A stretch of DNA of 63,604 bases, counting the filler. It is 6 parts of 6 records of this genome, joined end to end, with 100 filler letters (N's around TTAATTAATTAA, not from the genome) between each part and the next. Parts side by side here need not be neighbours in the genome. Positions count along the whole stretch, not along the records: positions 18,333 to 25,377 come from SRR31156797_10390; 5 more parts are not named here. One strand, given 5' to 3'. Both the position numbers and the translations under genes were made by a program. Under the pieces are notes generated by a model. That model was not told where the DNA came from and did not search any database. It saw only the letters and a list, made by a program, of their open reading frames with translations. Shown here piece after piece: positions 14,462 through 56,448 of this stretch; within the stretch, counting starts at the first letter, position 1; every line of letters starts with the position of its first letter.

Positions 14462-14786
14462 TATTAAAGTATTAAATATAAAAGAAAAAATTGATATTGC
14501 AAAGAAAACAACTTCCCATGAAGTATTGACATTTCTATCAGAAGATTTATCTATAAATGTGCGTACTGAAGTTGCTAAGAATCTAAGTACTCCAGTCGAA
14601 GTTATTAATAAATTAGCATATGATGCAGTATTAAATGTTTCATATACAGCTAATAAACATTTTAGATGTACTGTAAAAAGAGAGTTTAACTCTTCCCCTT
14701 CAAATAATTCTTGTGTTGTTTGTGATGTACTTGAAATTGAAAAACTAACATATTGTAGCAATTGTCAAAGGAAACACTATGCTTAA
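14454..14786 (+). CDS. Hypothetical protein with LRV/HEAT-like repeats and Cys-rich C-terminus
   Basis: LSED...VRTEVAKN..TP.EVINKLAYD; CVVC...CSNC. Confidence 0.6.
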   Translation: MDNIKVLNIKEKIDIAKKTTSHEVLTFLSEDLSINVRTEVAKNLSTPVEVINKLAYDAVLNVSYTANKHFRCTVKREFNSSPSNNSCVVCDVLEIEKLTYCSNCQRKHYA

Positions 14787-17700
14787 TATTAAAAAATTAT
14801 ATCAAAACTTTTTAAGTGTATTATTAGTTAATCTATTAATATTTCATACTGTATTTCCAGTTTATGCTCAAGCTACTTCTGATAATCCAGATACTGTTCT
14901 AAGAGATAGTTGGTTTTTTAATCAAACTGATACATCAACTAGTGGAGAACCTTCAAATCTGAAATATTTTAAACATTTCGATGCAATGCCAGAAGAAATC
15001 AATCTTAAAATATTCAAAGACCAAGATTTATCACATTTAGAGGGGAAAAAACTCTTTGTTGGATATGGACTTGCTGATCCAAAAAATGGAGATTGTAAAG
15101 TTTTTCCAGCAAGTGAGACAGGATATACTAATGATATAACTGTTTGTTTACCTTGGTGGAGAATTGAAAGGGAATATGTTGTAAATAAAACAAATGAAGA
15201 AGTAACTGCTCAAAACCAAATACTTGAAGATATTAAAAATAATACAAGACCACCTATTAATTTTAAGACTTGTAAAGCTTGGGATAATGGAAAACAATAT
15301 CCAGGAGGAAAGGTAACTTGTACAAGTTATTATGATAGAAATGCATCATCAAGTTGTTGGAGTAATCCAGAACAACCAGAGTGTTGGGTAAACAACTGTT
15401 CTGAAAACATTAAAAACTATTGTACTTATATAGATAGTGCAGTTGGAGAAAAGACTACTTTAGAAACAGCAACTAATAGTGCTGTTGGTTCACCTGTTGC
15501 AACCTCTACAAAAATTAATCTTATTTCTCATCAATATGATTGTCCTTCTGGTCCACTTGTTGAAAAAGTAAAATGTTTAGATGAAGTTAGTGCAACAATA
15601 TTTCCTCAAGAGTGTTCAGAAGGGGTTTATGAATATTGTGATGAGAGAAGACCTAATTTTGATGGTGCAGGAAACCTAGTTTCATACTCAGGAACTTGTT
15701 CAAATGGGAAAGAAATAGTTTGTGAAGCCAATAAATTTAATACTCAAAGTAAGATATGTACAGCTCCTATTTATAAAGATTATGAAACAAGCGATATTCA
15801 ATCGGCAACTTTAACAAGAGATTATGAAACTTTTGAAGCTGATGTTTTATCTGGTGAACCAGATATATATATGGCTAAAGACAACTGTTTAAGAGCTAAT
15901 ACTGTTGAAGATGCAAGAAATCAAGAATTATTTGTAAAAATTAAAGGTAGTGGTTTCCTTGATGATGATATTTATGTACTTAGACACGCAAGTGATGGTT
16001 CTCATATCAAAGTTTATTGTAATATGCAACACGCAGAGAATAGAGGAAATAGAAAGAATTATAACGGGGATATCTTACAGTGTATAGACAATGACGGTAA
16101 TTATTCTTTCAATAAGACTACGGAAATTAAAACAACAGATATAGTATCTGTTCAACAAAACTCAGAAAATGAAAATGTAAGTGGAACTCCTTTTGCTTTA
16201 GGAAGAAATCATTATGGTTCAACTAAATTAACTATTGACGGAGTTGAAGTTGCACCTGAAACATTTGCAGGTAACTTTCCATATTATCCTAGGGATACTA
16301 GTTGGTTAAGGACATGGGATAATACAACTTCAACATTTTCTATCCTTTTTCCTTTTGCAGGTGCATATGATATTAGGTTCTATAATAAAACCAACACTGA
16401 AGTTGCAAAAGCATTAATTTCAATTGAAGACTTTAGGGAAATTGTTGAAGATGGTTCTTTACAATTAAAACTTGGTAAAAATATGCTACTTGCACCAAAA
16501 ATGCAAGATGATTTCATTAATGAAGATGGTACAAAAACACTTAAAGCCAATAGAGAAGATAACTGGGTTGAATGGGGTGGTGGTGTATTTGGTGGTAGAC
16601 ATTCTACTAAAGGTACATCAGTTTTAAAACCTAATGACTCTTATGTAAAACAAAATGCTGTACACAGTGTTATTATTAAAGATTTAATTACAGGAGCTAT
16701 AACACCTATTCCATTAGTTTACCCTCTTCCTTATCCTAATAGAGTTTTTGTAAGTAAGCTTAATGTATATGAGAAAAGAAAATATAGATGTTATAACGAC
16801 TTCCCAGATACTACATTCTTAGGAACGAGTACTTCATCTGAAATAAAACAAGTTTGTAGTACTGATCCAAATTATATTGACTATAAAAGTGGACTAAGTA
16901 TAGACTCTACAATTATCCCTAAATGGGAAAATGAAACAATATGTGGTCAAAACTGTAGACAATATGAAGAGTGTACTCTAAATACGAATGATAACTATAC
17001 TTGTGAACAAAGAGGTGGAGAAGATATCGGAGGCGATATTGCAGGTAATGAATTCTCTTCAAAAACTTCTTGTAATGAACAATGCTATAAACAGAATGAA
17101 TGTGTAGACTTCAGAGACAATAAATGTAATCTTGTAGAAGAAAAAGTTTCAGAACCAATTTCTGATATGTATGGGAAAACTGTATTTAGAAAGAAAGAAG
17201 TAGCTTATAGATGTATTGATAATGTTAGAAAACAAGTAGGATGTGATAAATGGGAGTATAAAGACCTAGAAGGAGATACAACATTTAGGCATGATGCAGG
17301 TTTTGAGACATTTGATTTTAGTTCAAACTTTGAGAAAGCAGTTACCCATGCAGCTAATTTAGAAGTTGGGATGTTACACATTTGGTCAGGTTGGAAAGGT
17401 GAATGTGTATATGGTAAAAAATGGGATTTCTCTTATCTTTCTGATCCAATGACATTAGTAAGTTATGCAATGATGGCATATTCAAGTTATGAATGGTTTA
17501 ATTCTACAGGAACAACTACTACCAACAACAATGATGGTGGTGGAGGCGGTGGCTCTAGTGGTACTGATGGTGGTGGTGCAGGAGCAGGTGGAGCAGTAAA
17601 TGCTACTTCTAACCTTACTCAATCAACATGGGGACAATTCCAAGAGTCAATTAAAAAAATTGCAACAGATTTTCAAGCAGGATGGGATGATTTAGCGAAA

Positions 17701-18232
17701 GATGTTACAAAAAGTTTAGAAACAGTTACAAAACCATTCACAACTGCTTATAATGACTTAATGACCTCTTTAGGAAATAGTATAACAAAAAATCCTTTTA
17801 CTGAAAGCTTAAGCAAAATTTCTGATGCAATTACTAGTGGGATTACAGAAAACCCAATTAGTGATGCTATAGGAAGTGGATATGATGGTATCAAAGGAGG
17901 AGTTGAAGGGTTATATAGTGATGCAATGTCAAAAATCACTGAACTTTCTAAAGATACTTTTATGGGTGAAATGATTGGAACATTAGAAGGCTCATATCAA
18001 AAAGTTACTGATTTTTTAGCAAAAGATATTATTGGACAAAGTGGAGATTGGGTTCATATTACTTATGGAAAATTAGCAAAGTTTGGAATTAATGTTGCAA
18101 TGGCAGCTATGGCTCCTCCTCCAGAGGCATACCAAAAAGCAGACCAGATTTTAAAAGGTTATTATGGTATGTCTTCAGAAGAAAGTGATTTAGTTGCATA
18201 TAACTCTTGTATGGCATCTATTGGACTATCAT
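14779..18232 (+). CDS. traN: TraN-like mating-pair stabilisation protein (3' partial)
   Basis: Signal peptide, >1150 aa, very Cys-rich; NFEKAVTHAANLE...HIWSGWKGEC resembles the TraN C-terminal F..A...L / IF.G....C block; runs into the gap. Confidence 0.7.
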
Positions 18233-18332
18233 NNNNNNNNNNNNNNNNNNNNNNNNNNNNNNNNNNNNNNNNNNNNTTAATTAATTAANNNNNNNNNNNN
18301 NNNNNNNNNNNNNNNNNNNNNNNNNNNNNNNN
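18233..18332. other. Artificial contig linker
   Basis: N-run + TTAATTAATTAA + N-run. Confidence 0.98.
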
Positions 18333-20911: not shown

Positions 20912-21448
20912 TTAAAAGATCCAGCCAATCTTTAATGATATTTCCGGTATAACTTTCTGTATCTCATACTCTGTCTCTCCAACTATTATTTCATTTTCTG
21001 AGCTTAAATCAACATGAACAGCTCCCCACGGATTAATCGTTAAATTCTCTGTCAACTTAAACACATAACCTGCACCTACTGTAAATATTTTTTGATGAAG
21101 TGATACATCCTGTTCACCATCTTCTTCGCTTATTTTACTAGACCAACTCTCTACCCCTACTCCAGTCCAAAACCCTGTATACTCCTCAGGATTATCAAAA
21201 TAATAATCTACTATAAAAGCGTATACTTCCATTTCAACTTTCTCTATTCCATCCTGCAAAATAAAATCCGGCATATTGCTTTCAGCTCTTATCACCCTAA
21301 ATTTATTTCCATTCTCAGCAATCCCTAATCCAATATAATTTCCCCCAGTTGCAAATGGAAACAGATCTAACTCTAATCCTACGTTGGCAATTGCATAAGT
21401 ATTAAAAGAAAATATAAATGTGAAAATTAAATAAAACATTTGTTTCAT
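20912..21448 (-). CDS. Small outer-membrane beta-barrel protein
   Basis: Signal peptide, amphipathic strands, C-terminal beta-signal ISLKIGWIF. Confidence 0.7.
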   Translation of the reverse strand: MKQMFYLIFTFIFSFNTYAIANVGLELDLFPFATGGNYIGLGIAENGNKFRVIRAESNMPDFILQDGIEKVEMEVYAFIVDYYFDNPEEYTGFWTGVGVESWSSKISEEDGEQDVSLHQKIFTVGAGYVFKLTENLTINPWGAVHVDLSSENEIIVGETEYEIQKVIPEISLKIGWIF

Positions 21449-21608
21449 TGTTAGCCCCTCCCTTCTTAATTATGATTCTATTTTTTAGTATTTCAACTCT
21501 ATTTTATAGTTTGATTATACCACTAAAAGTTATTTTGTCAAGTCGTGATGCTAAATTTATACAAAAAAATAAAAAGGATCATAAGCAATGCTTATAATCC
21601 CGTTAAAT

Positions 21609-22769
21609 TTAATTTATTTTTTTTACTTTTAATAGTTGAAAAATATCGTTACCACAATTTGGACATTTATCTTTTTTCAAATCTTCTATAAATTTATATT
21701 TTTTACCTTCTCCTAATTGAAAAACCGTTTTACAAGTTTTACACTTATACTCTTTAATTTTAGTTACTACAGTTCCGGTATAGATCTTTTCATAAAATTT
21801 TTGATTTAACTTATCACGTAATGAAGTTAAAATAATCATATCACTTCTGTTACCAATCACACTTGCACCATTATACTTATTAAAGTCACAATATATATTC
21901 TCTATTATAAAGTCTAAACTCTGAAACACTCCTTGTGCAGAAAATTTAAACTCATCATCTTTTTCTCCAAAAGATAAAAAAAGTTTTCCTGTAGCTTCAT
22001 TTTTTAGAGCAGATTTCCCTCTATAAAGGAACAACTTCAAACCGTTTAGAGTATACGGTGGATCAGTAAAAACTGTATCAAAATAATTTGTTAAATTATT
22101 CGGTAGTGGATTTATCAGATCATGTTTAATAAACTCAAACTCAATTCCTTTGTATTTTTTGTTAAGCTCTTCAAGAATATGTAGTAGTCTATCATCTACA
22201 TCTACTACTGTAATTTTAGTATTAGAATTAATATTTTCTCCATAGATTTTCTTTAATAACAAAGCTAATGAAACACTGACAAGATCATCATCTCCTATAC
22301 ACAGGATATTCTTCCCAAGTACAGAGTTATACTTCATTGCAAGTACTGCTCTTTTCAAGCTTGTCTCAGGTGTACACTCCGTTTGATCTATTGATAAATC
22401 AGAAGGAGGCCTTTTAAGAAAAAGTTCATTCAGTTCTGAAATTTCTTCAGAGAAAAGCTCAGAAAAAACATAATTTCCATCATTGATTTTGATTATTAAA
22501 TCTTTATCGATATCTTTAAGGCCCAGTATTTTCTCAACAAATTCAATTCCTTTTTCAGTCAAATTTATTCCATTTTTCTGAATTAGAATTTTTAATTTTA
22601 TGAATTCCTTTTTAATTGCAACAATTATAGGAATTGGTAGATTTAATAAAGCTGATAAATTTTTATTTGATAATTTTTGATAAATATAAATATATTGCAA
22701 ATAAGTACTCAATATATTTTTGTCCTCTTTTAAGTTTATATTATTATATACTTCTTCTATGTAATTCAA
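21609..22769 (-). CDS. bpsA: Branched-chain polyamine synthase (bis-aminopropyl-spermidine synthase) family
   Basis: IGDDDLVS, VVDVDDR, FTDPPYT, FNKY motifs; C-terminal CxxC...CPNCG ribbon; TTG start. Confidence 0.78.
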   Translation of the reverse strand: MNYIEEVYNNINLKEDKNILSTYLQYIYIYQKLSNKNLSALLNLPIPIIVAIKKEFIKLKILIQKNGINLTEKGIEFVEKILGLKDIDKDLIIKINDGNYVFSELFSEEISELNELFLKRPPSDLSIDQTECTPETSLKRAVLAMKYNSVLGKNILCIGDDDLVSVSLALLLKKIYGENINSNTKITVVDVDDRLLHILEELNKKYKGIEFEFIKHDLINPLPNNLTNYFDTVFTDPPYTLNGLKLFLYRGKSALKNEATGKLFLSFGEKDDEFKFSAQGVFQSLDFIIENIYCDFNKYNGASVIGNRSDMIILTSLRDKLNQKFYEKIYTGTVVTKIKEYKCKTCKTVFQLGEGKKYKFIEDLKKDKCPNCGNDIFQLLKVKKIN

Positions 22770-22779
22770 TGTCTTGTTT

Positions 22780-22848
22780 ACCTCCAGATTAATATTTTAC
22801 GGAGGTTACTTAATCGAGATTTATTCTATTATTGATTAATCAACCCCC
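22780..22848 (-). promoter_or_regulatory. Translational attenuator (anti-anti-SD / anti-SD / SD)
   Basis: GGGGGTTGATTAATC (22848-22834) pairs with GATTAAGTAACCTCC (22815-22801); ACCTCC alternatively pairs with the bpsA SD GGAGGT (22785-22780). Confidence 0.65.
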
Positions 22849-22879
22849 AGGTTTTTAATAATCTATTAGTTACAAACAT
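22829..22879 (-). CDS. Putative leader peptide MFVTNRLLKTWGLINQ (16 aa)
   Basis: AAAGGGG SD 8 nt upstream, ATG, tandem TAA TAG stops; overlaps the attenuator helix. Confidence 0.6.
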   Translation of the reverse strand: MFVTNRLLKTWGLINQ

Positions 22880-22970
22880 CAACTCATCCCCTTTCATTCT
22901 TGTATTAGTATATTCATCATATCACAATTTGTCGATTCTTTAAATACTCTATTTTTTTATTATTACAAAA

Positions 22971-23003
22971 CAGCCTCTAATCTTATTCCGAGATTAGAGG
23001 CTG
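22971..23003 (-). terminator. Intrinsic terminator of the XRE gene
   Basis: 13-bp stem CAGCCTCTAATCT/AGATTAGAGGCTG with T-runs. Confidence 0.75.
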
Positions 23004-23026
23004 ACAATATTTTTTATATTCTATGT

Positions 23027-23722
23027 TTACACTCGATTTATTACTACTACTACTTTTCCATAAGCTTTAAGCTTTGTTTCATCTGTTATCAGTATCATTT
23101 CATCCAAATGAAATTTAGAGTATAGTATAATTCCATTCTCCTTTTTTTGATATCTTCTAACTAAAACTTCACCATTGTAATCAAAAATTCCAATTTCATC
23201 ATTTTCTATTTCACTTGTCTTCTCAACAATTACTATTGCCTTATCAGACATCATTGGTTTTATGGGACTTTCCTCAATGTAAACACCCACATAATCAGCT
23301 TCTTTTTCCAAGAAAAGAGTCGTATAGTTTAATGGTTCTGCATTTTTTACCAATCCCAGTGCTTTTTCAAAACCATCAAAAACAGGAATTTTAATCGCTC
23401 CTGTATAAGAGATTATCTTTAACTGTTCCACTATTCTTTCATCAGTTTTTTCTTTAACAAATGCAGATATTGCTTTTTCCGTTATGAAACCAGCCAAAAT
23501 ATATAGATTAATTGAATTTGTCCCTAGACTTCCAGCTAGTGCTGCCAGCTGAAATGGATTCAATCTCTTTTTTTGCCCGCCTTCTAATCTATGGATGTCA
23601 GCTCTGTTTATCCCGCTTAATTCTTCAATATCAGTAATTGTCATCCCTTTTGTTTTTCTTTTTTCTTTTAAGTAATTTCCCAATTTCATTGCATTTTCTT
23701 CTGATATCACAAAACTTTTCAT
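23027..23722 (-). CDS. XRE-HTH regulator with a degenerate S24/LexA-like domain
   Basis: LKEKRKTKGMT..DIEELSGI....IHRLEGG HTH; S24-like C-terminus; ATG 23722 has an AGAGGTG SD. Confidence 0.8.
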   Translation of the reverse strand: MKSFVISEENAMKLGNYLKEKRKTKGMTITDIEELSGINRADIHRLEGGQKKRLNPFQLAALAGSLGTNSINLYILAGFITEKAISAFVKEKTDERIVEQLKIISYTGAIKIPVFDGFEKALGLVKNAEPLNYTTLFLEKEADYVGVYIEESPIKPMMSDKAIVIVEKTSEIENDEIGIFDYNGEVLVRRYQKKENGIILYSKFHLDEMILITDETKLKAYGKVVVVINRV

Positions 23723-39983: not shown

Positions 39984-41570
39984 ATGAAGAAGTATACATT
40001 AATTCTTTTTCTTTTAGTAAAAAGTTTTGTGTTTTCAGAATTAATTTTAGATATAAATGATACAACACTGGTTAGTGGAGAAACGGCAATTTTAAGTGTT
40101 GTAGTCAAAGATCAAAAACTTTCTAATTTTGAAATTGAAGGGATAGAAAATTTTAAAGTATTATCAAAAGGACAGAGTAGTAGTACTCAGATAACTAATG
40201 GTAAAAAAAGTAGTTCCAAAACATATCAGTATAGAATTCTTCCTCTTGCTGATGGAGAGTTTGAATTAAAAGTAGTAGGTAACTATAAAAAAGATAAATT
40301 TGAGAGTAATATATTAAATATTGAAGTAAAGCAAAGCTTTGAACGAAGTGAAGTAGATTTGAATTTTTATATGGAGTCAAACATTCCAAAGGAAAAATAC
40401 TATTTTGGAGAAAAAATAATTTTAAGTGAACATTTAATTACAACTGTAAATCTTGAAGGTTTTGGTTTTGTAGATAATGCAAAATACTCTGATTTTACCG
40501 AAAAGGATATAACACAAAAAGGTTATGAAGGAAAAATGATCAGAATAAACGGTAAAAAAGCTGCAGATTATACTGTGTATAAAGCTATTTTGGAACCTCT
40601 TAGAAGTGGTGAGTTTATTATTCCTTCCAGAACTTTCCAGGTTAATACAAGAGATACCAGCTCAATTTTTTCCGATATTAAGCCACACTATTTACAAACT
40701 AAAGCGAAAGAAGTTGAAATTTTAGAATTACCGGAAACTGATAAACCTAATAATTTTAGTGGAGCAATAGGTGTAGTAAAAGCAGATTATAAGTTTGATA
40801 AAACAGAAGCAGATTTTGGTGAAGCAATAACCTTGATAGTTAAATTGAGAGGAAATGCCAATCTTGATACTTTACAAGAGTTAATAAGTGAAAATATACC
40901 TGGTATAAAAGTATATCAAAATGTAAAAGATATCAAAGAGTATGTTGCTGCAGATAACTATACAGTTGAAAAAGACTATGAAATTGTCTTTATTCCTCAA
41001 AACTCTGGAGACTTAACTATTCCCGAAATTAAAATCCCATACTTTAATACTAATACAGAAAAATATGATGAAATTATACTTCCGAAACAGATATTAAGTA
41101 TAAATGGAGCAACAGTTAAAGAGAATACAGATCAACTAATAACTCAAAATTTTCAAAATGCTGAAATAACTGTTTCTCAAATTAATACAGTTAATAAAGA
41201 AGAGAGTGCAGAAAGTTATTTAGTATGGCTAATAATATTGGCTGTAACAAATCTAATTACTCTTATTGCTTTGATAGTGCTGCTTTTTAAGAATAAAAAA
41301 GCAAAAGAAACTGGATATGATTTCAAACAACTTAAAAATAAAATAAAAAAATCTAATAATATTAATGAACTTTATAATTTGTATAATGAAGCAATAAAGT
41401 TAAAATTTAGCTTAAGCATTAAGAGTTATAGTTCAGAGCAAATAACTAGAGAAATAGGTGAAGAAAAAGGAATAGAAATTGCTAACATTATAAAAGAATT
41501 AGAAGCACTTAAATATTTTAATAAAACTCCTAATAAAGAATTAAAAGAAAAAATGATAAAAACTCTATAA
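39984..41570 (+). CDS. batD: BatD oxygen-tolerance protein
   Basis: SSSTQITNG, P.NFSGAIG, YFNT..EKY; synteny. Confidence 0.82.
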   Translation: MKKYTLILFLLVKSFVFSELILDINDTTLVSGETAILSVVVKDQKLSNFEIEGIENFKVLSKGQSSSTQITNGKKSSSKTYQYRILPLADGEFELKVVGNYKKDKFESNILNIEVKQSFERSEVDLNFYMESNIPKEKYYFGEKIILSEHLITTVNLEGFGFVDNAKYSDFTEKDITQKGYEGKMIRINGKKAADYTVYKAILEPLRSGEFIIPSRTFQVNTRDTSSIFSDIKPHYLQTKAKEVEILELPETDKPNNFSGAIGVVKADYKFDKTEADFGEAITLIVKLRGNANLDTLQELISENIPGIKVYQNVKDIKEYVAADNYTVEKDYEIVFIPQNSGDLTIPEIKIPYFNTNTEKYDEIILPKQILSINGATVKENTDQLITQNFQNAEITVSQINTVNKEESAESYLVWLIILAVTNLITLIALIVLLFKNKKAKETGYDFKQLKNKIKKSNNINELYNLYNEAIKLKFSLSIKSYSSEQITREIGEEKGIEIANIIKELEALKYFNKTPNKELKEKMIKTL

Positions 41571-41639: not shown

Positions 41640-43826
41640 GTGAGACAGATGAAAAGAAACTTGGTAATTGTATTTATACTTTTAAATATATTTGTTTTAG
41701 CTGAAGAACGCCCGAAAATAGGTTTAGTACTGGGTGGCGGCGGTGGAAAAGGTTTTTTCCATATTGGTGTTTTAAAAGTTTTAGAAGAAGAGCAAATCCC
41801 GATTGACTACATAGCAGGAAACAGTATAGGAGCTATTATCGGCGGATTTTATGCTATGGGATATAGTGCTGCGGAACTTGAGCAGATAGTAAATGAAATA
41901 GACTGGGATAATGTGTTTAACGATAACCCATCACGAAGAGATAAACCTATGGAGGAAAAAATATTCTCTGAAAGATACGCATTTAGTATGCCATATAAAG
42001 GCTTAAAGTTTGAGTTGCCTCAAGGTGTTGTAAGAGGTGAATCAACATATCTAATGCTGAAAAAATACACTTGGCCAGCCAGAAATATAAAGAATTTTGA
42101 TAATTTTCCAATACCCTTTAGATGTGTAGCCGGGGATTTATTAACCGGAGAAGCTGTTGTATTTGACCAGGGAGATGTGGCAAAAGCAATAGCTGCCAGT
42201 ATGGCTATTCCAACTATATTTACTCCTGTGGAGATTGATGGAAGATTATATTGTGATGGTTTAATAGTTAGAAACTTGCCGGTACAAGAAGCTCTTGATA
42301 TGGGTGCAGACAAAATTATAGCAGTAGACGTTGGAACGATCAGTGATAATGTTGGAGATCTTTCGGCAGTAGGAATACTTAACCATATTGTTGCATTTAG
42401 AGGAAATGATTCGACAATTGAAGAGTCAGAAAAAGCAAGACAAAACGGAGTATTAATAAAATCTGAAAAAATATATGACTATTCATCAACAGATTATGAT
42501 AAAAGAAATGAGTTGATTGCTCTCGGAGAAAGAACGGCGAGAGAACATATTGAGGAGTTAAGAAAACTAGCTAATCCTGAAAAATATCAGGAAAGATATT
42601 CAATTGTAGAAGATATGAATACTGTTTCAAGAGTTTATATTAGTGAAGTTGAAGTTAAAGGCTTAAAAGACCTTGATGAAACAGTAGTATACTCATTCTT
42701 TAATAGAAGTCTTCCGTTTTATACAACTCAGCAGGAGATGGAAGATTTAATTAAAAGTTTGGATTCTACAGGTTATTTTAGAAAAATTTATTATGAGATC
42801 GATGGAGAAACTCTTATTATTCAGGTTGATGAGAGAGCGCAGAATAACTTAAGAGTCGGAATTAATGTTAATAATGATGAAGGTACATCAATTATATTTA
42901 ATACTGATATAAACAGTATAGGTATACAAGGATTTAAAACAGTAATTGATATTGAAGCTTCACAGTACCCTAGGATTTCACTGCAACAATTTTTATATTA
43001 TGGAATCAATAACTTATATGGAACTATTTTACAGGCTGAATATGATGTAGATGAGTTTGATGTAAAGAGTAGTAATGATTTTTATAACAGGTCGTTTTCT
43101 TTAGATGCCTTTGCTGGAACAATAACCAAAACAACATCTTTAGTGGGAGTAGGTATTAGACAGGATTATCATACTTATAATTATGATGAGGGAGAGATAT
43201 CTGATGAAGATCCAGTTGCTTATTTTTATATGAAATGGCGAACTGATACATTTGATGAAGCAGTTTTTCCTGAACAGGGAATGAATGTTGGTTTAGACTA
43301 TAAATACAGTATTTCCAATCAGGAGCAGATAGCAGGAGATTCAGATGACCCGTCATATCAATTAACGGAAGGATACCAGTTTGATGCTTTAAACTTTGAT
43401 TTTCTTAGTCACAGTCAAATTTTTTCAGATAGATTATCTATAATAGCAGGTTTTGATTACGCATATTTTAAAAATAGAAAAAATGAAGAAGAAACAATTC
43501 TTTATAACTATTATCCAAAACTTGGAGGAATAGGAAGAAGTACAGACAGTATTGAATTTGTTGGATTGGAGAAAGCAAGTATAGCAACAAAAGAAGTTAC
43601 TTCATATCAAGGCGGCCTTCAATACGAACTTGGAGGAAATCTCTATATAGTGTATAAATCAAACGTTGCAGAATATTATGACATAAATGATGAGTACAAA
43701 AAAATTAATGGTCAGGGGATTACACTTGGAATGAGAACTTTGTTTGGTCCTTTGGATTTTACGATGATGAATGATGCCCAAAATGGTGGTACGATTTATC
43801 ATTTTAACTTTGGATTTAGGTTATAA
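41640..43826 (+). CDS. Patatin-POTRA-beta-barrel phospholipase (type Vd secretion, PlpD/FplA-like)
   Basis: GGGGKG, GNSIG, DG catalytic motifs; POTRA-like segment; ends FNFGFRL. Confidence 0.85.
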   Translation: MRQMKRNLVIVFILLNIFVLAEERPKIGLVLGGGGGKGFFHIGVLKVLEEEQIPIDYIAGNSIGAIIGGFYAMGYSAAELEQIVNEIDWDNVFNDNPSRRDKPMEEKIFSERYAFSMPYKGLKFELPQGVVRGESTYLMLKKYTWPARNIKNFDNFPIPFRCVAGDLLTGEAVVFDQGDVAKAIAASMAIPTIFTPVEIDGRLYCDGLIVRNLPVQEALDMGADKIIAVDVGTISDNVGDLSAVGILNHIVAFRGNDSTIEESEKARQNGVLIKSEKIYDYSSTDYDKRNELIALGERTAREHIEELRKLANPEKYQERYSIVEDMNTVSRVYISEVEVKGLKDLDETVVYSFFNRSLPFYTTQQEMEDLIKSLDSTGYFRKIYYEIDGETLIIQVDERAQNNLRVGINVNNDEGTSIIFNTDINSIGIQGFKTVIDIEASQYPRISLQQFLYYGINNLYGTILQAEYDVDEFDVKSSNDFYNRSFSLDAFAGTITKTTSLVGVGIRQDYHTYNYDEGEISDEDPVAYFYMKWRTDTFDEAVFPEQGMNVGLDYKYSISNQEQIAGDSDDPSYQLTEGYQFDALNFDFLSHSQIFSDRLSIIAGFDYAYFKNRKNEEETILYNYYPKLGGIGRSTDSIEFVGLEKASIATKEVTSYQGGLQYELGGNLYIVYKSNVAEYYDINDEYKKINGQGITLGMRTLFGPLDFTMMNDAQNGGTIYHFNFGFRL

Positions 43827-50353: not shown

Positions 50354-51772
50354 ATGGAACAAACATGGAAAGATGAAATTCAAAGAGAGAGTTTTATTAA
50401 TGGAGATTTAATCAATAGTTTACTAGAAGAGAATAAAGAGATTAGTGATGAGAAGTTTGAGTCAATTATGCAAAAAGCTGAAAGACAGGAAAGGTTATCT
50501 TTAGGCGATACAGCTGCACTTTTAAACATAACTGATGATTCAAAAATTCAGAAAATATTTGACTTAGCTAAAGGTATTAAAGAAAGAGTATACGGAAATA
50601 GAGTTGTTCTATTTGCTCCTTTTTATTTAGGGAATAAGTGTACGAATCTCTGTACATATTGTGGTTTTAAAGCTACAAATGAGGATACTTTGAGAAAAAC
50701 TCTAAATCTTGATGAAGAAGCAAAAGAGATTGAAGCTTTAATTGATGAAGGGCATAAAAGACTTATAATGGTTTATGGAACACACCCTGATTACTCGGCA
50801 CAATATATAGCAGAAACAGTGAAAAAAGCGTACACTGTTAAAAAAGGTAACGGAGAAATAAGAAGAGTTAATATAAATGCCTGTCCAATGAATATTGAAG
50901 ATTATAAAATAGTTAAAGATGCAGGAATAGGAACTTATCAAATTTTCCAAGAAAGTTATCATGAGGAAACATATAAAAAAGTTCATATTGCCGGAGAAAA
51001 ATCAAATTTTAAATGGAGATTATTTGGTTTAAGCAGAGCTATGGAAGCGGGAATAGATGATGTCGGAATAGGTGCATTATTTGGATTATATAAATGGAAA
51101 TTTGAAGTTATGGGATTAATGCAACATGTAGAACATCTTGAAACTGAATATGGAGTTGGTCCGCATACAATTTCATTCCCAAGACTTAATGAAGCAAACG
51201 GAGCAGTAAAAGATCCTGAATACTTAGTTGGAGATGCTGAACTAAAAAGAATAATTGCAATTCTTAGGTTAGCGGTTCCATACACGGGTCTTATTTTAAC
51301 AGCAAGAGAAACTCCTGAGCTTAGAAGAGAGTGTATGAAGTTGGGAGTGTCTCAAATTGATGCCGGAACACAAATTGAATTACAGGGATATTCTAAACAT
51401 AAAAAAGATCAGAATCTAAAAGCTGAACAATTTAAGATTGGAGACAGTAGAAGCCTTGATGAAGTTATGAGAGAATTAATGGCAAATGGATTTACACCAT
51501 CTTTTTGTACAGCGTGTTATAGATTAGGTAGAACCGGAGAACACTTTATGGAATTCTCAAAACCTGGATTTATACATAACTTCTGTACGCCGAATGCAGT
51601 TGTAACTTTAGCTGAATATTTGGAAGATTATGCAAGTGAAGAAACAAAAGAAGTAGGTTATGGATTAATAGAAAAAGAAGTAAATAAATCAACTTTAGCT
51701 GAAAAAACTAAAAAAACTTTATTTGAAAAATTAGATAAAATTAGAAATGGTGAAAGAGATTTATATTATTAG
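50354..51772 (+). CDS. hydG: [FeFe]-hydrogenase maturase, radical SAM
   Basis: CTNLCTYC, GPHTISFPR, C-terminal SFCTACYR...NFCTPNA. Confidence 0.93.
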   Translation: MEQTWKDEIQRESFINGDLINSLLEENKEISDEKFESIMQKAERQERLSLGDTAALLNITDDSKIQKIFDLAKGIKERVYGNRVVLFAPFYLGNKCTNLCTYCGFKATNEDTLRKTLNLDEEAKEIEALIDEGHKRLIMVYGTHPDYSAQYIAETVKKAYTVKKGNGEIRRVNINACPMNIEDYKIVKDAGIGTYQIFQESYHEETYKKVHIAGEKSNFKWRLFGLSRAMEAGIDDVGIGALFGLYKWKFEVMGLMQHVEHLETEYGVGPHTISFPRLNEANGAVKDPEYLVGDAELKRIIAILRLAVPYTGLILTARETPELRRECMKLGVSQIDAGTQIELQGYSKHKKDQNLKAEQFKIGDSRSLDEVMRELMANGFTPSFCTACYRLGRTGEHFMEFSKPGFIHNFCTPNAVVTLAEYLEDYASEETKEVGYGLIEKEVNKSTLAEKTKKTLFEKLDKIRNGERDLYY

Positions 51773-55215: not shown

Positions 55216-56448
55216 TTAATTATTTTCCATCCAATCAAAATAAACTTCCGGAAATGGCTTAAGAGCTCTGTCAAGAATACCATGTAAAGACGCAATGCAA
55301 AGCCCATAATTAATTATCGGCACTCCATGTTCAAAACTTGTTTCGATTCTATTTACCATCTCTTTTCTGTTAAGTGTACATCCACCACAATGAATAACCA
55401 GTTTGTAATCAGTTAAATTATCCGGATAGTCTCTTCCTGAGCAAAATTCAAACTCTATTTCACTATCAATATGTTGTCTGATCCACCTAGGGATTTTGAT
55501 TCTTCCAATATCATCAGGTTGAGCATGATGTGTACAAGCTTCTGAAATTAATACTTTATCACCGGATTTAAGGTTTTTTAGTGTTTTAGCTCCCTGAACT
55601 AATTTAAATAGATCTCCTTTATATCTTGCAAATAAAATAGAAAAAGAAGTTAACATTATATCGTCAGGAGTATCAGCACTAACTTTTGCGAATTCCTGAG
55701 AATCCGTAATAACTAACTTAGGTTTTTTTCTTAAACTATTAAGAGTCCATCTAAGCTCTCTCTCTTTACAAGCATGAAAGACACCGTCATTATCTAAAAT
55801 ATCTCTCATTGTTTGGATTTGCGGTAAGATAAGTCGTCCCTTAGGCATTCCTGTATCAATTGGAATTACTAAAACTACATCGTCACCCGGTTCGATTAAA
55901 TCACCTAAGATAGTAGGTTGCTCAAAGCTTTTAGGGCTGTGTGTAATAATTAGTTTTTTTAATTCTGTAATATTCTGTTTTTTATCAGCAGAGATTTCAA
56001 TAAAATTATACTTATCCTGCGTTAAAGAATCTTTAAGATTATCAGAGGCTGTGTTCAGATCACTTTTGTTGATTACGACTAAAAAATCAGTAGAGTTCTT
56101 TTTAAGTAAGTCAATAATTTTATAATCAAAATCAGTAAATCCGTTATGATCAATAACTAATAAAGCGATATCAGTTTTCTTGATAACCTCTATAGATTTT
56201 TTTATTCTTAATTCTCCCAGTTCACCGACATCATCTATTCCGGCTGTATCTATTAAAACAACAGGACCGATAGGCAAAATTTCCATAGCTTTATAGACGG
56301 GATCTGTTGTAGTTCCTGCATAATCAGAAACAATAGCTAAATTCTGGTTTGTAATTGCATTAATAAGAGTAGATTTACCCATATTTCGCTTTCCAAAGAT
56401 AGCTATATGTAATCGGTTAGCTGTAGGTGTTTTATTTAAATTGGACAT
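55216..56448 (-). CDS. hydF: [FeFe]-hydrogenase maturation GTPase
   Basis: GKRNMGKS, GTTTDPV, DTAG, NKSD, EACTHH...HCGGC. Confidence 0.95.
   Translation of the reverse strand: MSNLNKTPTANRLHIAIFGKRNMGKSTLINAITNQNLAIVSDYAGTTTDPVYKAMEILPIGPVVLIDTAGIDDVGELGELRIKKSIEVIKKTDIALLVIDHNGFTDFDYKIIDLLKKNSTDFLVVINKSDLNTASDNLKDSLTQDKYNFIEISADKKQNITELKKLIITHSPKSFEQPTILGDLIEPGDDVVLVIPIDTGMPKGRLILPQIQTMRDILDNDGVFHACKERELRWTLNSLRKKPKLVITDSQEFAKVSADTPDDIMLTSFSILFARYKGDLFKLVQGAKTLKNLKSGDKVLISEACTHHAQPDDIGRIKIPRWIRQHIDSEIEFEFCSGRDYPDNLTDYKLVIHCGGCTLNRKEMVNRIETSFEHGVPIINYGLCIASLHGILDRALKPFPEVYFDWMENN

Follow-up and report, generated by a model that had tools for sequence, protein, structure and literature searches.

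A short upstream reading frame and three competing RNA helices as a candidate translational attenuator of a bpsA-family gene in a member of the Fusobacteriota

Attenuation of the ermC/cat type is built on a short upstream open reading frame (uORF) with its own Shine-Dalgarno sequence (SD) and on alternative helices, and pairing of the downstream SD is governed by where a ribosome stands. A second kind of leader, represented by SpeFL ahead of speF and by MAGDIS, the uORF of eukaryotic S-adenosylmethionine decarboxylase (AdoMetDC), acts through a conserved arrest peptide which captures a metabolite, and in the case of SpeFL through Rho-dependent termination. This study concerns the leader of a bpsA-family gene located on the minus strand of a 63,604-nucleotide stretch of DNA, hereafter the window, which belongs to a member of the Fusobacteriota. 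The uORF of this leader, together with three competing helices, probably makes the translation of bpsA depend on where a ribosome stands on the uORF, and the arrangement is more than chance. To the complete reading, which takes the leader for a translational attenuator of the leader-peptide kind, acting on a monocistronic bpsA-family gene with the uORF ribosome position as its read-out, we give about an even chance of being right.

Like the ermC/cat systems, the window has a uORF with its own SD just upstream of the gene, a segment internal to the uORF which takes part in alternative helices, and a ribosome position which would be read out. It differs from them in having three segments instead of four and in preceding a BpsA-family enzyme rather than a resistance methylase or acetyltransferase; moreover, unlike for ermC/cat, we know of no inducing drug. 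With three segments instead of four, a ribosome on the embedded segment would hide the SD and not expose it, so that a switch working as modelled would be a compact attenuator of three segments with a logic opposite to that of ermC, the ribosome on the embedded segment being repressive. SpeFL and MAGDIS share with the window a leader ORF ahead of a polyamine-pathway gene, but in the window the peptide is not conserved at the proposed arrest site and no ligand is indicated. No regulation of bacterial bpsA-family genes was found described: a full-text literature search, which did not cover subscription journals, found neither for bpsA nor for a MutS2 paralogue a paper describing a leader, uORF or riboswitch, and a 2026 review of branched-chain polyamines (PMC12979288) contains none of the strings riboswitch, leader, uORF, attenuat-, Firmicutes or 'transcriptional regulation'. 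The elements of the leader and its gene are the following.

22889..22895, minus strand: Shine-Dalgarno sequence of the uORF, AAAGGGG, 8 nt ahead of the ATG
22826..22879, minus strand: uORF of 16 codons, MFVTNRLLKTWGLINQ, from ATG to TAA at 22879-22829, with an in-frame TAG next to it at 22828-22826
22866..22901, minus strand: conserved 5' block, AAGAATGAAAGGGGATGAGTTGATGTTTGTAACTAA, from the predicted 5' end over the SD and the uORF start to codons 1-4
22834..22848, minus strand: segment 1, GGGGGUUGAUUAAUC, the SD-mimic or anti-anti-SD in uORF codons 11-16, predicted to form a hairpin with segment 2
22801..22815, minus strand: segment 2, GAUUAAGUAACCUCC, carrying the anti-SD ACCUCC (RNAfold and pairing models)
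22780..22785, minus strand: segment 3, the bpsA Shine-Dalgarno sequence GGAGGU, predicted to pair with the anti-SD once segment 1 is covered
22759..22771, minus strand: 3' strand of an outer helix, CAUUGAAUUACAU, which includes the UUG start and pairs with GAUGAGUUGAUG at 22887-22877 in the minimum free energy (MFE) structure
21609..22769, minus strand: BpsA-family gene, 386 aa, with a UUG start at 22769, 11 nt after GGAGG

The original prediction, made from the sequence alone, had described an unannotated 16-codon leader ORF with its own SD and a double stop, followed by a three-way switch of SD-mimic, anti-SD and real SD, and all of these elements were recovered on the minus strand exactly to the base. 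The helix that it proposed between segments 1 and 2 is formed, over 14-15 bp, in the MFE structure which RNAfold predicts for the leader (146 nt), and as an isolated hairpin it amounts to -14.9 kcal/mol; the alternative hairpin, in which the anti-SD pairs with the bpsA SD, amounts to -8.7 kcal/mol. In the models, the helices are mutually exclusive and a segment internal to the uORF governs the pairing of the downstream SD. The leader as a whole folds with an MFE of -28.4 kcal/mol, compared with -21.35 +/- 2.99 kcal/mol for its shuffled versions (z of -2.36), and one of 200 shuffles was as good. The sequence CCTCC is scarce in the window, with 75 copies in the 127,208 nt of both strands, and it occurs 5-60 nt upstream of the SD at one of 32 SD-bearing ORF starts. 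A search of the region 22500-23200 against Rfam gave only chance-level matches far below the gathering scores. The hairpin of segments 1 and 2 was also considered as a terminator, and this was ruled out by the absence of a U tract behind it.

The proposed mechanism would start from a transcript which begins a few bases ahead of the strong SD and the 16-codon uORF. While segment 1, the SD look-alike in the 3' part of the uORF, is paired with the anti-SD-bearing segment 2, the bpsA SD would be free; once the P site of a ribosome stands on approximately codons 7-16, segment 1 would be covered and the anti-SD left to pair with the bpsA SD, blocking initiation at the weak UUG start. The output of bpsA would be set by the position and dwell time of ribosomes on the uORF, in such a way that flowing or late-stalled ribosomes repress, while no ribosome, or one held on codons 1-6, permits expression. 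The signal would most likely be the translation state itself, i.e. ribosome stalling or stress. From these features we infer that the uORF is translated, in which direction control runs in vivo and what the signal is, and a late stall which turns the gene off fits the sequence as does an early stall which turns it on.

Modelling of ribosome occupancy gave a probability of 0.42 that the bpsA SD of the window is unpaired in the free RNA, of 0.68-0.80 with a ribosome on codons 1-6, and of 0.00-0.04 with a ribosome on codons 7-16. In the leader of the closest relative, L135, the corresponding values were 0.64-0.69 for the free RNA, 0.44-0.71 for codons 1-6 and 0.00-0.08 for codons 7-16, and the results of ribosome placement were alike at 37 and 50 °C in both leaders, the probability for codons 7-16 being at most 0.07 in that comparison. 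As modelled, both leaders behave as uORF-dependent, SD-sequestering switches. The predicted ability of a late ribosome to free the anti-SD and hide the bpsA SD was borne out by the models of both leaders for codons 7-16, but not for the last sense codon of L135, where the SD is free again (0.68).

The same elements are conserved in one relative. Relatives were collected by an alignment query, which retrieved 270 among 451 stretches from genomes and 185 among 357 from metagenomes, the best 80 of each being kept; a single-protein query of genome contigs had yielded 0 relatives among 118 stretches. Among the 160 kept loci, only L135, which comes from a metagenome, exceeds 45% identity, reaching 47% in its best tblastn segment. 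For the BpsA tree, loci with less than 450 nt upstream or less than 300 aa were dropped, followed by near-duplicates, which reduced 139 rows to 101; in this tree of 101 proteins, window and L135 BpsA are sisters (approximate likelihood-ratio test, SH-aLRT, 99), with 49% identity over 344 columns.

The leader of L135 consists, in order, of AAAGGAG, GATGAGTTG, ATG, a 17-codon uORF (MIVIKNTLRHLEEVIYI), UUCCUCC, the SD GGAGGAA and ATG. It retains an SD, 8 nt and an ATG ahead of the uORF, and its uORF holds an internal GGAGGAA which is the same as the real SD, with UUCCUCC between both, so that the three-way layout is also found here. Across the leader alignment, 116 of 198 positions are identical, and 32 of 36 in the 5' block; the parts which make up the helices vary both in sequence and in length, and the three-part logic is kept. 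The codon differences within the 5' block, at codon 2 (TTT/ATT) and codon 4 (ACT/ATT), are both non-synonymous, as is that at codon 5 just past it (AAT/AAA). As the conserved block changes its codons non-synonymously, the constraint on the leader is on the RNA. In its 3' half, the uORF peptide is not conserved, reading RLLKTWGLINQ in the window and TLRHLEEVIYI in L135, and a functional small peptide encoded by the uORF was ruled out on this basis. Viral contigs gave 0 matches to the 5' block of this short type of leader. Among the sequencing runs listed for this DNA none was of RNA; one is its probable source, and a second covers only 22659-22694 at less than 90% likeness, a span which does not include the leader.

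A related-looking leader was recovered from Bacillota, where it is referred to as the canonical leader. It is composed of a strong SD, a 7-codon uORF of the form M-(S/L)-(A/V/G)-x-V-L-N-stop, a helix named P1 and an intrinsic terminator; an example is L074:2142-2400, with the invariant 10-bp P1, an internal hairpin followed by GGUUUAUUUG, and the terminator. The 5' strand of P1 is formed by the last uORF codons, GTT CTT AAC TAA, and its partner GTTAAGAAC lies approximately 100 nt downstream; the consensus of the partner is GTTARGAAC at 70-215 nt, and both exact strands are found in 45 of the 160 loci. The vmlR gene of B. subtilis, which encodes a ribosome-protection protein, is described as controlled by a uORF and a terminator attenuator (PMC9226507), and attenuators of this type resemble the canonical leader in that a promoter is combined with a very short uORF and an intrinsic terminator. 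No paper containing MSAVVLN, MSVVVLN, MSGVVLN or GTTCTTAACTAA was found in the full-text search, and no Rfam family matches the canonical leaders.

The leader profile matches 81 of the 138 bpsA-family loci with at least 450 nt upstream, at less than 700 nt from bpsA in 71 loci and at more than 1500 nt in 10. Three reverse-strand pseudo-uORFs (MISxVLN, deriving from the palindromic P1) and the long-insert loci L026 and L076 were left out of the alignment of 53 non-redundant leaders (A2), in which the SD is present in 53/53, the starts are ATG (48), GTG (3) and TTG (2), the stops are TAA (51) and TAG (2), and the length of the frame is fixed. P1 is invariant except for a U-G wobble at one pair in three sequences and a wobble or U-U at the outermost pair, and the stem of the terminator covaries. 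In L027, L030, L037 and L073, P1 is kept by a compensatory change from C:G to U:A and the peptide becomes VFN; in L052, the VLN peptide is kept with synonymous Leu and Asn codons and P1 is retained; in L100, the RNA motif is retained and the frame is shifted.

The leader pattern occurs in all five source genomes, twice in two of them, and in 41 of 301 sampled genomes from the class of one source genome, while the reversed-pattern control gave one match. Nine downstream proteins of the copies found by pattern search were scanned, with MutS_V detected in seven (one just below the Pfam cut-off), BpsA_C in one and nothing in one, and the remaining downstream genes were assigned by N-terminal likeness only. 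On these assignments, the leader stands only before BpsA-family or MutS2-like genes and before no other polyamine genes in the 35 pattern-search loci (L161-L195). In L001, L034 and L059 it is followed by a MutS2-like gene and then by a bpsA-family gene, with 4-18 nt between the genes; all three upstream ORFs (637-677 aa, e.g. L001:504-2489, with bpsA at about 2495) carry MutS_V, and no Smr domain was detected in them. A MutS2-like ATPase placed directly upstream of bpsA behind one leader implies a functional link, and MutS2 is known to split stalled ribosomes in B. subtilis (PMC10897456).

Two further features of these loci were recorded. Just upstream of bpsA, a second terminator-like hairpin with a conserved loop containing GAUGACGUAUGUUCAU is present in L074 (approximately 2405-2450), L008 and L013, the clostridial form of the loop containing GUGACUUxxUGUUGCU. 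Some Paenibacillus loci have ORFs of 90-99 aa without a Pfam match between the leader and bpsA (L022:2226-2498, L024:2211-2492, L070:2195-2494), which end a few bases from the start of bpsA.

The window resembles the canonical leader in the block of SD, spacer and start, although the profile match there is not significant, and has the family of the downstream gene in common with it. The block is near-identical, reading AGGGGATGAGTTGATG in the window and AGGGGATGTCTTGATG in L107, and the GTTTGTAACTAA of the window resembles the canonical GTTCTTAACTAA, but out of frame. The window differs from the vmlR-type and canonical leaders in having no leader terminator, a 16-codon uORF and SD sequestration. 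Since the P1 partner and the leader terminator are missing, the window leader was treated not as an established member but as possibly a derived, purely translational variant.

That one and the same related-looking leader serves bpsA-family and MutS2-like ATPase genes in Bacillota is the reason why the signal is considered likely to be the state of translation. Its restriction to these two kinds of gene among the 35 loci fits the sensing of translation stress better than product feedback, and by this analogy the family context suggests a ribosome-stalling read-out rather than feedback. A more far-reaching reading, tentative and rather doubtful as it stands, is that the leaders of the window and of Bacillota together mark out a translation-stress regulon, in which a ribosome held on the uORF would turn on both a Smr-less, MutS2-type ATPase of ribosome rescue and an aminopropyltransferase-like enzyme of the BpsA family; the form found in Fusobacteriota would represent this sensor in a purely translational version that lacks the terminator. 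If so, polyamine-type chemistry would have a direct connection to the rescue of stalled ribosomes. The leader and the operon which bpsA-family genes share with those of MutS2-like ATPases in Bacillota suggest for these mesophilic 'BpsA-family' proteins a role beyond heat adaptation, in how the cell responds to ribosome stalling. In a bolder variant, the ribosome on the uORF may sense the polyamine product itself.

Several points weigh against the attenuator reading and its link to Bacillota. The occupancy models depend on an assumed ribosome footprint, in which the bases between -12 and +14, relative to the first base of the P-site codon, are forced to be unpaired, and the outer helix, which joins the uORF start region to the bpsA start region in the MFE structure of the window only, is replaced in L135 by a different register closing the leader. 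The conservation rests on one comparison, as there are only two sequences of the short type and they share ancestry; the grouping of the two as sisters carries a warning from the tool that two long branches are joined, which is often false, and the L135 contig has a frameshift in bpsA near codon 36 (L135:590-610). As P0242, a 382-aa member of the 90%-identity cluster of L135, is intact, this frameshift is a contig-level variant or an error. With respect to the canonical leader, the in-frame VLN-stop, the P1 partner and the leader terminator are all missing from the window. The top match of the canonical profile in the window is indeed the SD and uORF start (22893-22873), but its E values of 0.49, 0.89 and 1.1 (nhmmer) are not significant; the same holds for the top match in L135, again the SD and uORF start (379-398; E 7-18).

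For the proposed passage of the canonical leader from stall to read-through, equilibrium folding gave no consistent switch. The terminator was formed at a probability of at least 0.95 in every state in five of seven canonical leaders; in one it rose from 0.15 in the free RNA to 0.86-0.99 with a ribosome, and one further leader was without a usable terminator call. Two complementarities were only slightly stronger than in shuffled sequences: that between the uORF start region and the post-P1 segment (P0) had a median z of -0.85, with z below -2 in 4/49, and that between the post-P1 segment and the 5' arm of the terminator (antiterminator) a median z of -1.29, with z below -2 in 8/49; these shuffles included 49 of the 53 leaders, four without a U run or hairpin being skipped.

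Among the alternatives to a ribosome-position attenuator, the one which survives best, although unlikely, is that the structure works without translation of the uORF, as a binding site for a protein (e.g. the winged-helix part of the BpsA-family protein itself), a small RNA or a metabolite, or as an RNA thermometer, the uORF being incidental. It agrees with the strongest conservation (32/36) being at the level of RNA and not of peptide, and with the uORF start codon being itself paired in the MFE structure of the window. However, both leaders have retained an ATG at 8 nt from a strong SD, with a frame of 16-17 codons ending just past segment 1, the canonical leaders use only ATG, GTG or TTG as starts and keep the frame length in 53/53, and no Rfam family matches. 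As for a thermometer in particular, a relative of the host lineage is a thermophile by name (Hypnocyclicus thermotrophus), but the modelled accessibility of the SD in the free RNA is nearly constant between 37 and 50 °C, passing from 0.42 to 0.46 in the window and from 0.69 to 0.59 in L135.

In the original prediction, the nascent peptide, together with spermidine or a branched polyamine, was to arrest the ribosome near the end of the uORF, freeing the anti-SD and shutting off bpsA as product feedback. The RNA half of this proposal was reproduced, in that the SD of both leaders becomes hidden in the models when codons 7-16 are occupied by a ribosome; the gene is in the BpsA family, members of which are fused to AdoMet decarboxylase (P0018, P0099), and metabolite-sensing leaders of polyamine genes do exist, as described for SpeFL (10.1101/604074). 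The part concerning polyamine arrest is nevertheless without support, and one of its predictions failed: L135 keeps the uORF and the three-part helix layout, but where peptide conservation near KTWG was expected it reads RHLEE, and it does not keep the double stop either. The conserved sequence at the arrest site which marks leaders of the SpeFL and TnaC type was not seen in the one relative compared, the changes in the 5' block are non-synonymous, and at the last sense codon of L135 the SD is modelled as free (0.68). Moreover, the canonical leader precedes only bpsA-family or MutS2-like genes in the 35 loci and no other polyamine genes, and none flank bpsA in the window. On balance, arrest by a polyamine appears very unlikely. 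That a chance uORF and an incidental hairpin merely coincide in an AT-rich spacer, with no regulatory role, is highly improbable: the fold z of -2.36 is modest, 57 of the 138 bpsA-family loci are without a leader-profile match (L049, L058 and L091, for instance, are leaderless) and the canonical-profile match is not significant, but L135, with 49% protein identity, retains the three-part layout as well as the 32/36 block, and CCTCC near an SD is rare in the window (1/32).

The attenuator reading also requires the uORF and bpsA to be part of one transcript, and the surroundings of the leader contain the following features.

23797-23027, minus strand: LexA-like gene (helix-turn-helix and peptidase S24, from Pfam), upstream of the leader
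22971..23003, minus strand: intrinsic terminator of the upstream LexA-like gene, a 13-pair stem followed by TTTTG
22907..22935, minus strand: promoter-like site TCGACA-17 nt-TATACT, a consensus match only, at 10/12 positions
21575..21601, minus strand: intrinsic terminator directly 3' of bpsA (terminator scan)

Three terminator-like sites were found in the scanned region, compared with 0.2 expected. That at 22971..23003 is the 5' limit of the bpsA transcription unit, and the unit is considered monocistronic because the terminator at 21601-21575 follows the gene. The promoter-like site is placed between the terminator of the LexA-like gene and the uORF, with a predicted transcript start near 22900, and no terminator-like site was detected by the scan between uORF and bpsA, from 22829 to 22769; a short uORF with its own SD thus lies directly upstream of bpsA in the same predicted transcript. 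A three-codon ORF, ATG AGT TGA at 22878-22886 on the minus strand, overlaps the start of the uORF (TGATG) and is identical in L135; because no spacer separates its ATG from the SD, this ORF is unlikely to be used.

The downstream gene belongs to the BpsA family by its sequence, and its activity as a branched-chain polyamine synthase is putative. The product matches Pfam BpsA_C (PF01861, E 1.1e-40) and, over residues 41-302, the N(4)-bis(aminopropyl)spermidine synthase of PDB entry 5xnc (E 1.3e-24), its best identity to a solved BpsA being low. The protein is composed of an N-terminal winged-helix-like part, BpsA_C with GDDD, and a C-terminal CxxC..CxxC zinc ribbon; G159, D160, D161, D162 and the four C-terminal Cys are invariant in 19 aligned homologues. 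To our knowledge, neither the zinc ribbon nor an operon link to MutS2-like genes is a feature of characterised BpsA enzymes. The UUG start, proposed in the original prediction, is supported by the alignment of homologue N-termini, as the product begins with MNYIEEVY and its closest homologues with MNYTKEVY and MNYINEVY; GTG or TTG starts were found in 16 of the 76 genome loci with an assignable bpsA-family start. Among 8000 scored candidates, 591 proteins are homologues at E <= 0.001, mostly from Bacillota; the closest, P0001, P0002 and P0003, which come from Logan assemblies, have 53, 52 and 48% identity to the BpsA of the window. P0018 and P0099 combine an S-adenosylmethionine decarboxylase domain with BpsA_C (PF02675 + PF01861), which makes a role in polyamine metabolism plausible and fits the use of decarboxylated S-adenosylmethionine by the family.

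A scan of the window ORFs against gene and Pfam models found no polyamine genes flanking bpsA, and tblastn gave no match to a MutS2-like gene in the window. Downstream of bpsA, a 178-aa ORF at 20912-21448 (minus strand) encodes a product with a signal-peptide-like N-terminus and a C-terminal W-I-F, without a match in Pfam; judged by eye only, it resembles a small outer-membrane beta-barrel. Two large ORFs of the window, 14779-18288 and 39984-41570, are without an NCBIfam match, and a 728-aa protein encoded at 41640-43826 (plus strand) matches patatin-like phospholipases and, weakly, the BamA (OM_YaeT) model over its first 69 positions. The genes of HydG and HydF are located at 50354-51772 and 55216-56448, respectively, and the assignment of the host to the Fusobacteriota is reflected in HydF, whose identity reaches 79% with the Hypnocyclicus thermotrophus protein and 75% with one from Ilyobacter.

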